This document shows positions 2,012-61,678 of a stretch of 64,000 nt of DNA, one piece after another. Origin of the DNA: Octopus vulgaris (lineage: Eukaryota); the NCBI GenBank assembly GCA_951406725.2, contig OX597828.1, positions 5,766,001 through 5,830,000 of the forward strand, in the 5' to 3' direction. The position numbers and the translations under genes were made by a program. Within the stretch, counting starts at the first letter, position 1; every line of letters starts with the position of its first letter. Below the pieces are notes generated by a model, which worked only from the letters and a program-made list of their open reading frames with translations, was not told where the DNA came from and searched no databases.

Positions 2012-2100
2012 ACTTCCGACACATGTTTCGAAGATATCACTGGTATTATTCCAAAGGAATAAAATGGTGTAAAGCAATGTAATCTTCTCTTCAGAGAAGC
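2012..2100 (-). ncRNA. Type I hammerhead ribozyme motif with extended stem II, in a PLE terminal-repeat-like segment (~1810-2370)
   Basis: Minus strand reads GCTTCT-CTGAAGA-GAAGAT..(46 nt)..ATCTTC-GAAAC-ATGT-GTC-GGAAGT: 6-bp stem I (two G-U), intact core, 6-bp stem II, GUC cleavage triplet. Confidence 0.75.
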
Positions 2101-2399
2101 AAAAAAATGAAATTCGTCATTAAGACATTTTAGCAGAAAATGATGGATATATATACTGTTTAACTGAATGCTATTAAGATTGTTTAAAAAAACGTTTTAT
2201 GATATAACGTCAAAGGTAGACTATTGAAAGAGGAGGGATAAATGAAAGAAAAACTAAATAAATGAGAAGTATATGACTATATGTATATTAAATATAATCA
2301 TATAGACTTGGAAAAATATACATCTCTATTGAGATATATATCTAAATCTAAATTAAATTACAGCAGATTTTAATGACCACCTCGAGAACCCAGTTTCCC

Positions 2400-3700
2400 C
2401 ATAAACTGTTCGCTGGGAGCTACACAAAGCTGGATTTCACAGGATGTATTCGAAAGCCGTCAACAAAAAAGTCAAACATTTGTTATTCATGGATGACCGC
2501 AAACTGTATGGTAAAGATGAAGCCCAAGTCAGTTCCCTCGTTGATACGGTATATACTTTCAGTGCTGATATCAGAATGGAGCTCGGACTGAGAAAGTGTG
2601 GTGTATTAGTACTGAAGAGAGGCAAAATCAAATGTATGAATGCACTAACGATACGGTCGGGGGAGGTTACGAAGCAGGTAGAAGGGACGGGCTATAAGTA
2701 CTTAGGGATTTTGAAAATGGATAAATTGATAGAGAAAGAAATGACAGAAAAATTTAAGGTGGAGTACTTGCACAGACTGAGACTAATACTTAAGGCAAAA
2801 TTAAACGGATGGAATAAGATCGAAGCTATCAACACCTGGGCGGTTTCACTCCTTAGGTATGGAACAGGGGAAATCGCATGGATAGTAGAAGAACTAAAAA
2901 GCTTAGACAGAAAGACAAAAAAGTTTCTAACTAGATATTGGTCTGTCCACCCGAAAAGTGACACAGATAGACTGAATGTACCAAGACAAACATGGGGAAG
3001 AGGGCTTATTGGATGCGAACACAGCATTAAAGCAGATGTAAAACATAACATGATATGTAAAAAAGGCCACAGAAATGCTATTATTAGAAGTAAGAAAGTC
3101 AGGCTTGTGTAGGTTGAAAGAGTGCAAAAATAAAACACTTTACAAGTAATTGAAATCGAATGAAACTGAAAATAGGTAGGTAAAGAAAAGAACGCATGGT
3201 CAATTTCTTACCTTCATGTGTTGAAGATAAGACAGAGAGAAAAAATGCCTGTGGATGACTGAAAGTGATTTAAAACCGAAAACGGAGGCTCTAATATGTG
3301 CTACCCAAGAGCAAGCACTAAGAACAAACTACATAAAATACAGAATAGACAGCACATCAGAAAATGATAAGTGCAGAATCTGTGGGCAAAACGGTGAACC
3401 TGTATGGCATATTACCAGCCAATATATGCCACTAGCCCAGGAGGAATATAAGTGACGTCACGAAAATATAGCCAAGTTTTTCCATTGCACACTTTACAAC
3501 AAGTATGGACTTGACAGAGAAAAAAATTGTTACGACCACAAACCTGTCGAAAAGAGAAATACAAAGATCCTATGGGATTTTATGATTCAGTGCGACTATG
3601 AGATTGAGATTAGGAAGGCGGAAAAATCTTACTTGAGAAAGAAAACAAACTATGACAGGTTAGCTTGGGAAGTTAAACACAAGAGTGGCCTTCGAATAGA
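2400..3700 (+). mobile_element. R4/Dong-like non-LTR retrotransposon 3' fragment (RT, CCHC, REL endonuclease)
   Basis: ORF 2444..3112 has HLLFMDDRKLYGK, YKYLGI, NKIEAINTWAVSLLRY and HPKSDTDRLNVPR..GRGL. ORF 3255..3455 has ETEAL-like TEALICATQEQALRTNYIK and CRICG..E..WHI. KILWDFMIQCD follows at ~3564-3596. Confidence 0.85.
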
Positions 3701-58030: not shown

Positions 58031-61000
58031 TGGTTGTTTTCCTCCACCACTTTTCATATATATATATATATATATATATATATATATATATATATATATA
58101 TATATATATATATATATATATATATATATATACATATATATATACATATATATATACATATACATATATATATATATATATATATATATATATATATATA
58201 TATATATATATATATATATATATATATACATATATATATATACATATACATATACATATATATATATATATGTATATCTACATACAAACACACAAATACA
58301 TGCCACGCATGCATTCATTCACATAAGCCCCCACCCATATATATATGTATATGAGGAGAGAGAGAGAGAGAGAGTGATATAAAGAGAGAGAATTTTTCAG
58401 GAAGTAACTTTACAATAGTATTGGAAGGCTGTGAAAATGATTCGCCAAAGGATAACATTTTATGCACAAGATTCCTAATAGGATAAATTATATAGAAGAG
58501 TTCTGACTGAGAAAAGAAATCGTCACGCAAAGCCGCTTCTGTAATAATTTATAGCAACTTTTTTGAATGTATTTAAAATCCTGTCATCAAATCTGACGGC
58601 ATTGATTTGTTTCTCTGTCCGTAAGAAGAAACTGGATTTTGGTTCGGATAGAAGTAGTATGCAACCTCATGATTTCTGAGTCTTATCAGTAACATACAAT
58701 TCTCATACAATAGGTTAAGAGAAATTACCCCATTCTATAGTGCAACTAAATCTTAAACTCGACACTGCCAAGCGAAAGAGAACAGGGTTTATTGAAAATG
58801 AGAAAAAGACAAGGAGCTTGAGAGGTAAAAGTAACCATTTGTACCTGTATATTTTTAAACAATAGTATGCAATTCAGAAAGCAATTCTCAGTTACTACAA
58901 CATACAATTCAAAATGAGATTAATTTTTGCAAATGGTAACATTATTCAGTAATAAAATAAGGTAAGATAGACTTGAAACTACCTTTACATCAAAGATTCA
59001 TCCATTTATTTTATTTCTATCTCCTACGAGATTCTTACGCAGCCAATTAATTCTGAACGTTCCGCAAACAAAATGTATCTTAATGCGTTAGTTTTTTCTA
59101 CACTATATACGTTTGCTCGCGTATTTGAAACAAGCTAATTCATTATCATGATTGACATAAAAATACAACAAATATCAGTGGATCAATAGCTTTATTTTTA
59201 ACATTGACGAACATTTTAAAATTATGAAAATATTCAGGATTTTCACAATGGAATATTGATAACCAGTGTAAGAGGGACCACGTGACACAGCTATAATATG
59301 ATGATAATGAAGATGGAAAGATGAATATTAGTGTTACCTTTTCAAAAATAAATAAATAGATAAATAAATGAATAAATAAATAAAATAAAATAAAGATAAA
59401 AAGCAGCAGCGAATGACAGAAGTGATAGAATTGCTGATAAAATACCTTAGGATATTCATTTTCGTTCGTTAATCTTCTGAGCAAAATCTCCATGGAGTCG
59501 ATTTTACCTTTCAATCGAGCAAGGTTCATTAAAAAAATAAAGAGCCAGAAATGCACTGATATCAGTTCCCTTGACAGTTCTGTCGTATCAATGTGTGTCC
59601 TAGTGCCACTTTAAAGAATCGATAGTAAAAGGAATTAATATTCTACTGTTTAAAATAATTGCATATGATTATGAGCAGTAAGTCATGGACAAACTACTTC
59701 AATGATTCTCTGATGTTCAGTGCGATTTAGTTCTTGTTAAGAAAGATGATATATACAGAGCATTTCGTTAGAAATAGAAATCAAATCAAACTCCTTTATC
59801 CTACAAATAGAAGGACACTTTCGTTAATGCAATTCTGGATACATTATTCATGAATGACGATAAAGAAAGAAAGCCTTTGATCGTAGGTCTGCTGGACCAA
59901 GGCTGGCCTTGGGCAAAGTAACAGTGGCAGACATTAGATACATGGAATATCAAAGTAGACTATGACAAATAATGGATGGCCATAGCTTGGATGCATTAGA
60001 TCATGTATGTTTGTTGGATTAAGAATAATCTTAGGATAAATATCATCAATAGACTTATGAAATCCTGTTCTGATTTATTCTACACGATTGTGACACATTA
60101 CCTCCGATTTATTAGCAAAGTCATATGTGTATGTATGAATTTGCGCGATGAATAGATATGTCTGAAAGAATGGATATAGTCGTTGGATGTGTGCGTGTGT
60201 CGGTTGGTGTGTATCAATGCGTTAATTTCGTGGTGAAGGCTGTGTTGAATATACAGAATCATTTTTTTTTTCCATTTCGATATCAAATATTTCCGTTATT
60301 TCTCAAATCAACCAAAGATCATGAGATTTAGGAATCGTGTGACACGGAAAATGATTTTTAATGATTGCAAATAACGTTAGCCTAGTTGGCAGAAATGCTC
60401 TGGCCTGAAATGTAACGAGAATGATTGTGTTGAAATTCATTGTCAAAGCATGGAGAAGCTCACGTGCCTGATTATGGAAAATCTGATGAGTATGAGGTTA
60501 TTATTATGATAAACAGAATAGTGCCCAGTAAAGGATTGACTAAACAGCACTGTGATACAATTCAATGACACAAAGCCAGTATACATTCGGTAACACAATA
60601 GATAAAAAGGAATAAACTACTGAAAGAATGTTATGCACTGCTGAAGGTATGTTTTAGTGTATGATATTTCTTCTCTTTATAACTAACTACTACATGAAGC
60701 AGCTTGTTATATTTAATTACATGATTACATCTAAAGCAGTTCAAAATGTAGTGTGACAGACAGAAGTGTAGTATAAAAGACTAACTATTAATGCGGTGAA
60801 TTAAATTATAGTGCACCGAGCATTGTTTTTATTCGTCTTTCAACGATCCGGATAGAACCAATGGAGTTTATCATTGCATTTCGTCCATGACATTGGTTTA
60901 AGAACGATAAATTGTAATACGAGTGTTCATGCATTTGATGACTACGTTTCCTTGTGGATTTGTATTTTTATGTCTGTTTTTGAAATCCTTATTAATTCAC

Positions 61001-61642
61001 ATCATTCCATCATCCAGATACACTTTAATAACCAGTGAAAATATCTGAATAGCTAGAAACCTCAGAGCAATTAATTCAGTTACATAAACTTGCCTTGAAT
61101 AAAATCAGGAAATTTATTTATCCCTAATCGACTAAATGGTATCATTTTCCTGGAAAATGATCAGGTTTCTGAATTCATTTAATAGCGGCGAATTAGCTAC
61201 GATAATTTATAATTACACTGACTGTCCAATTTGCTAAATATTTTATAATTTTAGTTCTTTTCAGAAACTTAGCAGTTTTGAAAATAATTTGATATTCACA
61301 TACAAATGGATGCATATATATACATACATACATACATATATACACAACAGCTTCCCTCTCCACACACACACTTCTCAACACTCACACATCTCACCATCAT
61401 CCACATACACGTACAATCTTCAGTAGCGTCACCACACACCACTATACGAGCAACCACACACTCTGTTTAACTCAGTACACACACTGTTCTCACATACACA
61501 CAACAGCTTGCGCACCGCCCCTTTTTTGGGATCACTCTGAATTAACTCCTCTTCATTCAAACTCTCTCTATTGTTATCTTCCTTTCATTGGACCACTGAA
61601 CTCAACACATTTTTTTCTCTCTCTATTTATTTCCTCTTATTC

Positions 61643-61678
61643 CTTTCTGTCAAAGAGCGAAGACTCGAAACGTAAAAG
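61643..61678 (+). ncRNA. Minimal hammerhead-like motif, core variant CTGTCAA, in a PLE-terminal-like repeat (~61520-61750)
   Basis: CTTT-CTGTCAA-A-GAG-CGAAGA-CTC-GAAAC-GTA-AAAG. Upstream FLGSL*IN resembles the PLE ORF end (F.LGTL.P.GLN). Confidence 0.4.

Follow-up and report, generated by a model that had tools for sequence, protein, structure and literature searches.

Why should a single stretch of octopus DNA hold about a dozen sequences that resemble the hammerhead ribozyme? The stretch in question, hereafter the window, is 64,000 nt of the Octopus vulgaris genome (assembly GCA_951406725.2, contig OX597828.1, positions 5,766,001 to 5,830,000, forward strand). An earlier reading of its letters, here called the original prediction, listed five hammerhead motifs with an intact core and seven variant or decayed ones, and proposed that they belong to an unusually dense fauna of non-autonomous, ribozyme-bearing repeats. 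In our judgement nine of the motifs are clear, and these are probably the 3′-terminal stubs of several families of Penelope-like elements (PLEs) that inserted into (TA)n microsatellites.

Anatomy of the motifs

All five motifs predicted to have an intact core (H1–H5) carry CUGANGA...GAAAC...GUH exactly, and a sixth site has a compensatory form of the core. Numbers in parentheses give the start of the core.

2011..2101, minus strand (2094): H1, type I hammerhead motif with exact core and GUC triplet
11666..11758, plus strand (11671): H2, type I motif with exact core and GUA triplet
51215..51255, minus strand (51250): H3, exact core with C.A at 10.1/11.1 and one broken pair in helix II
51517..51557, plus strand (51522): H4, exact core, palindromic ACUAGU
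56546..56604, minus strand (56598): H5, exact core, decayed copy
22980..23025, plus strand (22987): the 22984 site, U3-A8 compensatory core UUGAAAA, GUA triplet

H1 has a helix I of 7 bp, a junction helix II of 6 bp within a 58-nt domain, and a helix III of 2 bp closed by an AUGU tetraloop; its predicted cleavage base is 2018. In H2, helix I has 5 bp and helix II 8 bp within a 64-nt domain, and the 2-bp helix III with its ACGU tetraloop makes a perfect 8-nt palindrome. H3 and H4 are sister copies. The helix I of H4 has 5 bp, and its 3-bp helix II lies behind a C.A mismatch at the 10.1/11.1 junction. An extended helix I of ~45 bp, interrupted by internal loops, carries H4 at its tip (51470-51600, plus strand; z -6.4, 0 of 200 shuffles), and that of H3 is likewise long, with the motif at its end (51170-51296, minus strand; z -5.4, 0 of 200 shuffles). 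Such a helix exceeds the 4–6 bp usual in PLE motifs. The 22984 site, with a 4-bp helix II and a palindromic ACCGGU, had been counted among the variant or decayed motifs; it is an intact covariant with a published U3-A8 core and not a product of decay. Paired stem I, also predicted for all five exact-core motifs, holds except in H5, whose window copy has an A.C mismatch at the closing pair of helix I, together with a C.C mismatch in helix II.

The remaining six sites are more altered.

7234..7268, minus strand (7264): minimal motif with U4C in the core and an additional base at 9.1, helix III without a loop
57995..58030, plus strand (57999): minimal motif whose core has U at position 6 (CUGUCGA), with an additional base at 9.1
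61643..61678, plus strand (61647): member of the 57995 family, U6 plus G8A, decayed
40412..40457, plus strand (40417): the 40411 site, probable decayed minimal motif
23731..23806, plus strand (23735): doubtful decayed long-helix-II motif
42773..42824, minus strand (42817): 7-bp helix I and partial core only

The 7234, 57995 and 61643 sites, all predicted as variant or decayed, form one superfamily, with U6 common to two of the three window copies. The 40411 site, which combines G5A, U16.1C and an extra base at 9.1 with a 5-bp helix II and a weak helix I, is a probable hammerhead motif. The 23731 site has C3U without A8, lacks U16.1 and keeps a strong helix II only. It and the 42773 site are unconfirmed and may be chance matches; none of the last three sites passes any of the descriptors described below.

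Both junction helices are intact in H1, H2, H4, 22987, 7264, 57999 and 61647. H3 and H5 have broken pairs as they stand in the window, and a sister copy or related contigs keep these pairs. Eight of the nine solid motifs were scored for helix III and all eight proved self-complementary; H5 makes the ninth by direct reading of its ACGCGU. Core changes number one each in 7264 and 57999, two in 61647 and none in H1–H5; a core change or a broken pair is thus found in five of the nine solid copies. The 12 sites therefore divide into four with a published core and all helices, five backed by a sister copy or family data, one probable and two unconfirmed. The predicted kind of motif, a minimal type I hammerhead with short helix III drawn from several unrelated repeat families, agrees with this anatomy and with the alignment groups given further on.

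Excess over chance

The window is AT-rich (GC content 0.28-0.41 per 2 kb), with about 11% simple repeats and with remnants of LINEs (long interspersed nuclear elements) as well as mariner transposons. One explanation is that the motifs are simply chance matches in sequence of this kind. The descriptor used to judge it called for a helix I of at least 4 bp, a helix II of at least 3 bp (direct, after an extra base or after a junction mismatch) and a palindromic helix III; descriptors were loosened after the sites had been seen, and so are partly fitted to them. The chance control consisted of local dinucleotide shuffles (150, or 100 for the U3-A8 test) and a complement-only control.

The exact-core descriptor gave three matches against a shuffle mean of 0.01, and none of 150 shuffles reached three. 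With one core mismatch permitted there were five matches against 0.08 (again 0/150 shuffles), and the complement-only control returned none. Cores with either C3-G8 or U3-A8 gave four matches (2094-, 11671+, 22987+, 51522+) against 0.20 at score 5 and 0.03 at score 8, a number reached by none of 100 shuffles. The motifs thus lie far above the dinucleotide-shuffle level, as the original prediction had supposed.

The loosest class behaves otherwise. When two core mismatches are permitted, shuffles yield 3.3 matches each at a score of at least 7, so that such sites are inseparable from chance; the further matches of the loosest descriptor (such as 30563, 36247, 39000, 41463 and 44390) were rejected as within chance level, and the 23731 and 42773 sites may be matches of this sort. 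That Rfam finds no site would also fit a chance origin. Set against this are the strict classes, which exceed all shuffles, the strand polarity of the motifs toward (TA)n and the base pairs restored in related contigs. The chance reading is refuted for nine sites, and as an account of the motifs as a whole its probability is close to nil.

Position beside (TA)n microsatellites

A (TA)5 or longer run occurs within 350 nt downstream, on the motif's own strand, at 10 of the 12 motifs as compared with 20.6% of random places (binomial p 6e-6), the cut-off of 350 nt having been picked after the flanks were seen. Counting H3 and H4 once leaves the result at 9/11 (p 2e-5). Upstream, only three of 12 motifs have such a run within the same distance (p 0.46). 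The median distance from motif to (TA)5+ is 186 nt, against a background of 1173 nt, and the two motifs with no nearby (TA)5 run downstream are the two doubtful sites, 23731 and 42773. On their own strand, the clear motifs precede (TA)n by 30-250 nt: 31 nt for the 57995 motif, 89 nt for 22987 and 226 nt for H1, while the probable 40417 motif stands about 240 nt away. H2 lies inside a unit of ~306 bp (about 11572-11877) with (TA)n flanking either side.

Three insertions show how the elements are laid out.

50999..51724, both strands: compound insertion, two head-to-head copies of the H3/H4 element between (TA)n runs
11900..12177, minus strand: motif-less stub related to H5 (z 18), a tailed copy joined to an inverted tailless copy between (TA)n runs
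28095..28165, minus strand: motif-less 3′ stub of the H2 family (z 17) between (TA)n runs

In the compound insertion, an extra inverted 3′ piece (51344-51470) lies between the two copies, whose 5′ ends differ, and a tail of ~48 nt is missing from the plus-strand copy. Inverted truncated copies with a one-sided tail are described as typical of PLEs (PMC8557442), and the tail of a PLE is reported to arise from two reverse-transcription starts (PMC11167929). The inverted copy with a tail at one end, found at both 50999-51724 and 11900-12177, matches this signature of PLE insertion.

It is conceivable that some of the families, namely the H3/H4 rod and the H2 unit, are instead non-autonomous elements of ~300 nt, resembling retrozymes or short interspersed nuclear elements (SINEs), which borrow PLE enzymes and move through a small, perhaps circular, RNA of their own. 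The long rods of H3 and H4 with the motif at the tip are in keeping with this, and no protein remnant was found upstream of the H3/H4 and H2 units. Unit sizes of 250-350 nt would fit the 150-450 bp given for retrozyme monomers, and a preprint derives animal retrozymes from PLE terminal repeats. Tandem copies, however, define the retrozymes that lack long terminal repeats (non-LTR retrozymes), and no motif in the window lies inside a tandem array, the longest period among its 85 arrays being 35 nt. The inverted-plus-tail layout is also that of PLE insertions, and the 5′ ends of the two H3/H4 copies differ. As no tRNA genes were found in the window, there is no sign of tRNA-headed SINEs at the motif sites. 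We consider this alternative rather unlikely. The original prediction had named Penelope-like terminal repeats and retrozymes side by side; the former half stands, and the latter finds no tandem array at any motif. Its separate non-autonomous fauna is likewise replaced by a layout that fits 5′-truncated PLE ends, with some room left for non-autonomous derivatives.

Families and copies elsewhere

Pairwise alignment of 14 element stretches (91 pairs, scored as z) linked H3 with H4 (z 96), H5 with the stub at 11900 and H2 with the stub at 28100; weaker links join 57999 to 61647 (z 10) and 7264 to 61647 (z 6.6). The score of 6.1 between 7264 and H5 was not taken to merge these as a family, because a shared core and U-rich flanks can yield such values. 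By this measure of sequence likeness the sites fall into seven groups plus two doubtful sites, and the nine clear motifs come from about six or seven repeat families, fewer than the roughly ten independent families first proposed.

Work with assembled contigs extended the comparison beyond the window. Contigs of four runs (X1, X5, X9 and X14, from three coded organisms, X14 being guessed to be RNA) were aligned to 56253-58056 at 80% likeness, a region that covers two of the approximately seven families; 40 of 327 rows of differences were seen, none of them from 57904-58056. Among the public runs that contain the window, the best has 3,306 million letters of contigs. X14 holds contigs of both families, which is not counted as a sign of expression, and no RNA ends were seen in the contigs. 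The summed contig depths given here are not copy numbers. The first family is represented by the following element.

56253..56740, minus strand: multi-copy element bearing H5, as judged from contig depth and loose ends

Depth over H5 was about 6,000-6,800 in X1; the figure for a contig of 1,044 nt that almost equals the locus in sequence is 53.7. Three of the 40 difference rows fall at H5, at 56599, 56589 and 56610, the last of these outside the helices. At 56599 the A.C at the closing pair of helix I becomes G-C in 1795 of 1901 depth units in X1 (94%), 781 of 790 in X5 (99%) and all of X9 and X14. At 56589 the C.C in helix II becomes G-C in 1444 of 1496 in X1 (97%), all 861 in X5, 195 of 201 in X9 (97%) and all 16 in X14. 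Since its relatives restore both pairs, the window copy of H5 has decayed within a family whose helices are intact. Near 56375 the depth rises tenfold, and loose ends there bear TA repeats; this step, together with sequence continuing to 56253, suggests an H5 element with two 3′ ends, that is, with a tail. Contigs of the H5 family also show opposite-strand joints. In six X9 contigs akin to H5 (loose ends, 56532), helix III and the 3′ arm of helix I differ, and these may be copies in decay or a sister family whose changes compensate one another.

The second family is deeper. At 57995, depth climbs from 278 to 66,188 in X1, and it reaches 156,252 in X5 and 22,289 in X9, as compared with 53.7 for the locus contig. 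A ratio to the locus contig of roughly 1,000-10,000 indicates that the family is very large. The alignable part of these relatives is the motif itself, 57996-58030, with loose ends in X1 for 117 contigs at 57996 and 98 at 58030, and the consensus of the loose ends is similar to the sequence that flanks 61643. As far as the contigs tell, the 35-nt motif forms an island of conservation within a very deep family. Patterns built for the 57995/61643 family found no match in viral contigs and none in metagenomes. A looser pattern picked up five loci with 43-48% GC (two of them identical), which were set aside as chance or unrelated: none had a BLAST match to the window, and most lacked helix II by eye.

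Dispersed multi-copy status has thus been seen in the four runs for H5 and 57995, and within the window for H2 and H3/H4. The compensatory evidence so far, which includes no multi-copy alignment, consists of the two pairs restored in relatives of H5 and one outer helix I pair of 7264, where G-C replaces the C-G of its 57995/61643 sisters (the comparison being with 61647).

Probable origin from Penelope-like elements

Hydra-clade PLEs, among them Hydra-1_Obim of Octopus bimaculoides, are reported to prefer (TA)n and to have the motif some 100-250 nt short of their 3′ end (PMC8557442). According to PMC4209133 and PMC6765202, a palindromic helix III lets two copies of a PLE motif form an active dimer, and in the anole the element's own protein helps the PLE motif to fold (PMC11167929). 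A sequence of events along the following lines could have produced the window. Reverse transcription would start near the 3′ end of the element RNA and would usually stop early, and short ribozyme-bearing ends would accumulate. Selection on active source elements would keep the motif, and single inserted copies would then decay. In the source elements, the motif would process tandem element transcripts as a dimer through its palindromic helix III, or together with the element's protein. Motif density would follow from a high PLE load rather than from any use of ribozymes by the host, and single copies in partial decay are predicted to cleave host RNA seldom or never.

The density itself is 4 intact motifs per 64 kb, or one per 16 kb, and 9-10 when decayed copies are included, or one per 6-7 kb; the latter is a little below the one per 5 kb first estimated. 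Stub extents, judged roughly and by eye, total 3,255 bp or 5.1% of the window. An annotation of Octopus vulgaris gives 6.83% PLE sequence in 190 families (PMC13282606), and one stub per 5-7 kb is what such a load would give if the host is of that kind. The claim of unusual density finds no support beside that figure, the more so as the window is one selected stretch.

Several observations weigh against a PLE origin. No match to a PLE reverse transcriptase or GIY-YIG domain was found in the 259 window frames of at least 55 aa, nor in 27 read-through frames upstream of nine motifs. As no PLE protein remnant was found, PLE membership is inferred; in short 3′ stubs the absence of a PLE frame would be expected. 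Published PLE consensus sequences lacked the window motifs and tail (0/6 motifs in one search; 1/6 in another, with two unrelated 9-mer matches). Rfam hammerhead models, whose use the original prediction had proposed as a check, miss every site: there was no window match at gathering score, and among the weak matches listed (the best 150 of 236), which are microsatellite hairpins, there was no hammerhead. Because Rfam misses all the sites here, standard annotation undercounts such motifs. Lastly, the 350-nt limit was set after the fact, and the comparison with copies elsewhere covers two of about seven families through 40 of 327 difference rows, which give neither per-base conservation of the core nor a count of covariation over many copies.

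A short frame at 22846-22950 (plus strand), upstream of the U3-A8 motif, has no relevant Pfam match; it faintly resembles the end of a GIY-YIG domain. The idea that H1, H2 or H5 are "half cores" of octopus Naiad elements was dropped, as the 3′ ends of Naiad_Obim and Naiad_Ovul are unlike them by eye.

Possible action on host transcripts

Another way to account for the motifs is that the dispersed copies act on the host, cutting intronic or intergenic transcripts either as monomers (H1 and H2) or by pairing in trans. By analogy, the 2-bp helix III with tetraloop of H1 and H2 is the form seen in invertebrate retrozymes that cleave as monomers. In fold modelling, the hammerhead fold of H1 would lie only 2.1 kcal/mol above the lowest-energy fold, and the great depth of the 57995 family means that partners in trans could be plentiful. 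For H2, on the other hand, the active fold would cost 6.4 kcal/mol, and the altered state of five of the nine solid copies also speaks against function in the host. In published experiments, single minimal motifs showed no cleavage and dimers little (PMC4209133), while the anole PLE ribozyme needed the protein of its element, and no RNA-seq reads ended at its site (PMC11167929). H3 and H4, being on opposite strands, could not both be sense within a single transcript, and Pfam recognised no host gene in the 259 frames of the window. The cutting of nascent transcripts suggested in the original prediction, like any cutting on a transcriptome-wide scale, finds no support here. A role of this kind is very improbable, and insertion and decay of PLE stubs remains the preferred account.

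Other repeats in the window

Several further mobile elements are present. At 2405-3767 (plus strand) there is the disrupted reverse transcriptase of a LINE, including a zinc-binding part (RVT_1 and zf-RVT match weakly), with 191 protein relatives and at most 65% identity among the matches listed (the best 120 of 191); it is presumably Dong/R4-like. The reverse transcriptase at 2405-3109 was rejected as a parent of H1, since it lies on the opposite strand and looks like a different LINE class. A second, heavily broken LINE remnant at 3700-5600 (minus strand), seen in read-through frames without a Pfam match, looks RTE-like by eye. Remnants of mariner transposase (Transposase_1, HTH_48) occur at 13779-14870 (minus strand) and 18614-19245 (plus strand), the latter bracketed by a 162-bp direct repeat of 98% identity (17769-17929 / 19234-19395). 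Broken frames at 36500-38200 (minus strand), with no Pfam match, are what we take to be a Helitron Rep/helicase.

Some repeats have no coding remnant noted. A near-perfect palindrome of 305 bp (90%) at 9214-9518 directly follows a TA-rich run, and no hammerhead core was seen in it. An old inverted repeat of 626 bp (67%) at 57244-57869, with low multi-copy depth in the contigs of the four runs, is either like a miniature inverted-repeat transposable element or an inverted junction of PLE type. There are also a 290-bp direct repeat (44602-44888 / 45358-45648; 77%) and a pair of inverted arms at 38205-38410 / 38900-39040 (69-77%).

Significance

The window offers a dense and clear example of a phenomenon described in 2014 and extends a thin cephalopod record. 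One lead remains, the U6 core seen in the deepest of the sampled families. Conceivably, in a genome with hammerheads at one per 6-16 kb, that family fixed a U6 core and kept only the 35-nt ribozyme. Its copies might then cut host transcripts in trans or with PLE protein, alongside monomer-active forms like H1, or else the U6 motif might be a crippled hammerhead kept as a protein-binding or priming structure. We regard this proposal as quite improbable; if true, either outcome would allow the function of PLE hammerheads, still an open question, to be tested directly. Because that question stands open, the present observations would gain weight if the U6 family or the forms with long helix II prove active, or inactive yet conserved.

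Comparison with known systems

Lunse, Weinberg and Breaker reportedly describe many small hammerhead variants linked to PLEs. Among the papers listed, our literature searches found neither A6U nor helix II domains of 58-64 nt, which that paper (RNA Biol 14:1499) or the supplement of PMC4209133 may contain. Nearly all of the other unusual features are already in print: opposite-strand pairs and the wide range of families, the palindromic helix III, the additional 9.1 base and U3-A8, as well as the C.A junction, a helix II as long as ~53 nt and a hammerhead in an octopus PLE. For cephalopods, the papers listed gave one octopus PLE motif and a count of 235 Rfam hammerhead matches in the giant squid, and no genome-wide hammerhead survey.

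The metazoan non-LTR retrozymes (PMC7229834) resemble the window families in their type I motif, in AT-rich units of ~300 nt and in the rod fold of H3/H4, and share with H1 and H2 the helix III of 2 bp plus tetraloop. In contrast to the retrozymes as described there, the window has no tandem copies, and contacts between loop 1 and loop 2 are not evident by eye.

The likeness to the Hydra-clade and related PLEs of PMC8557442 includes preference for (TA)n, a motif near the 3′ end, a palindromic helix III of 2-4 bp and one-sided tails. The C.A junction of H3/H4 at 10.1/11.1 is found also in PLE-X1_cBra, and the helix II of PLE-X1_sMoe, at about 53 nt, approaches the 58-64 nt of H1 and H2. The window families differ from the elements presented there in that a motif search gave no consensus match and no protein frame ties them to a named clade.

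Another close counterpart is the minimal hammerhead of metazoan PLEs, for which PMC4209133 describes a type I layout, a short helix I, an extra base at 9.1, a palindromic helix III and U3-A8. There, as in the window, many families share a genome, mostly as single copies from truncated elements, and opposite-strand pairs lie 100-700 bp apart; motifs number in the thousands per genome. Published genome-wide counts include, for Acropora millepora, more than 6,000 from 16 families, for axolotl about 120,000, and, in PMC4209133, about 9,000 in Xenopus tropicalis and 4,000 in coelacanth; these are lower per kb than the local density here, but they come from other descriptors, and ours from one selected window. 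What sets the window apart from the minimal hammerheads is the 58-64 nt helix II domain of H1 and H2 and the U6 in two copies of one family.

The U3-A8 of the 22987 motif is among the natural core variants listed in PMC3088659 (and appears also in PMC4209133). Position 6 is likewise changed in a natural variant, the A6C of phage, for which PMC3088659 reports low activity, below 0.1 per min; the change in the window differs from it in being A6U, and in belonging to an animal repeat family.

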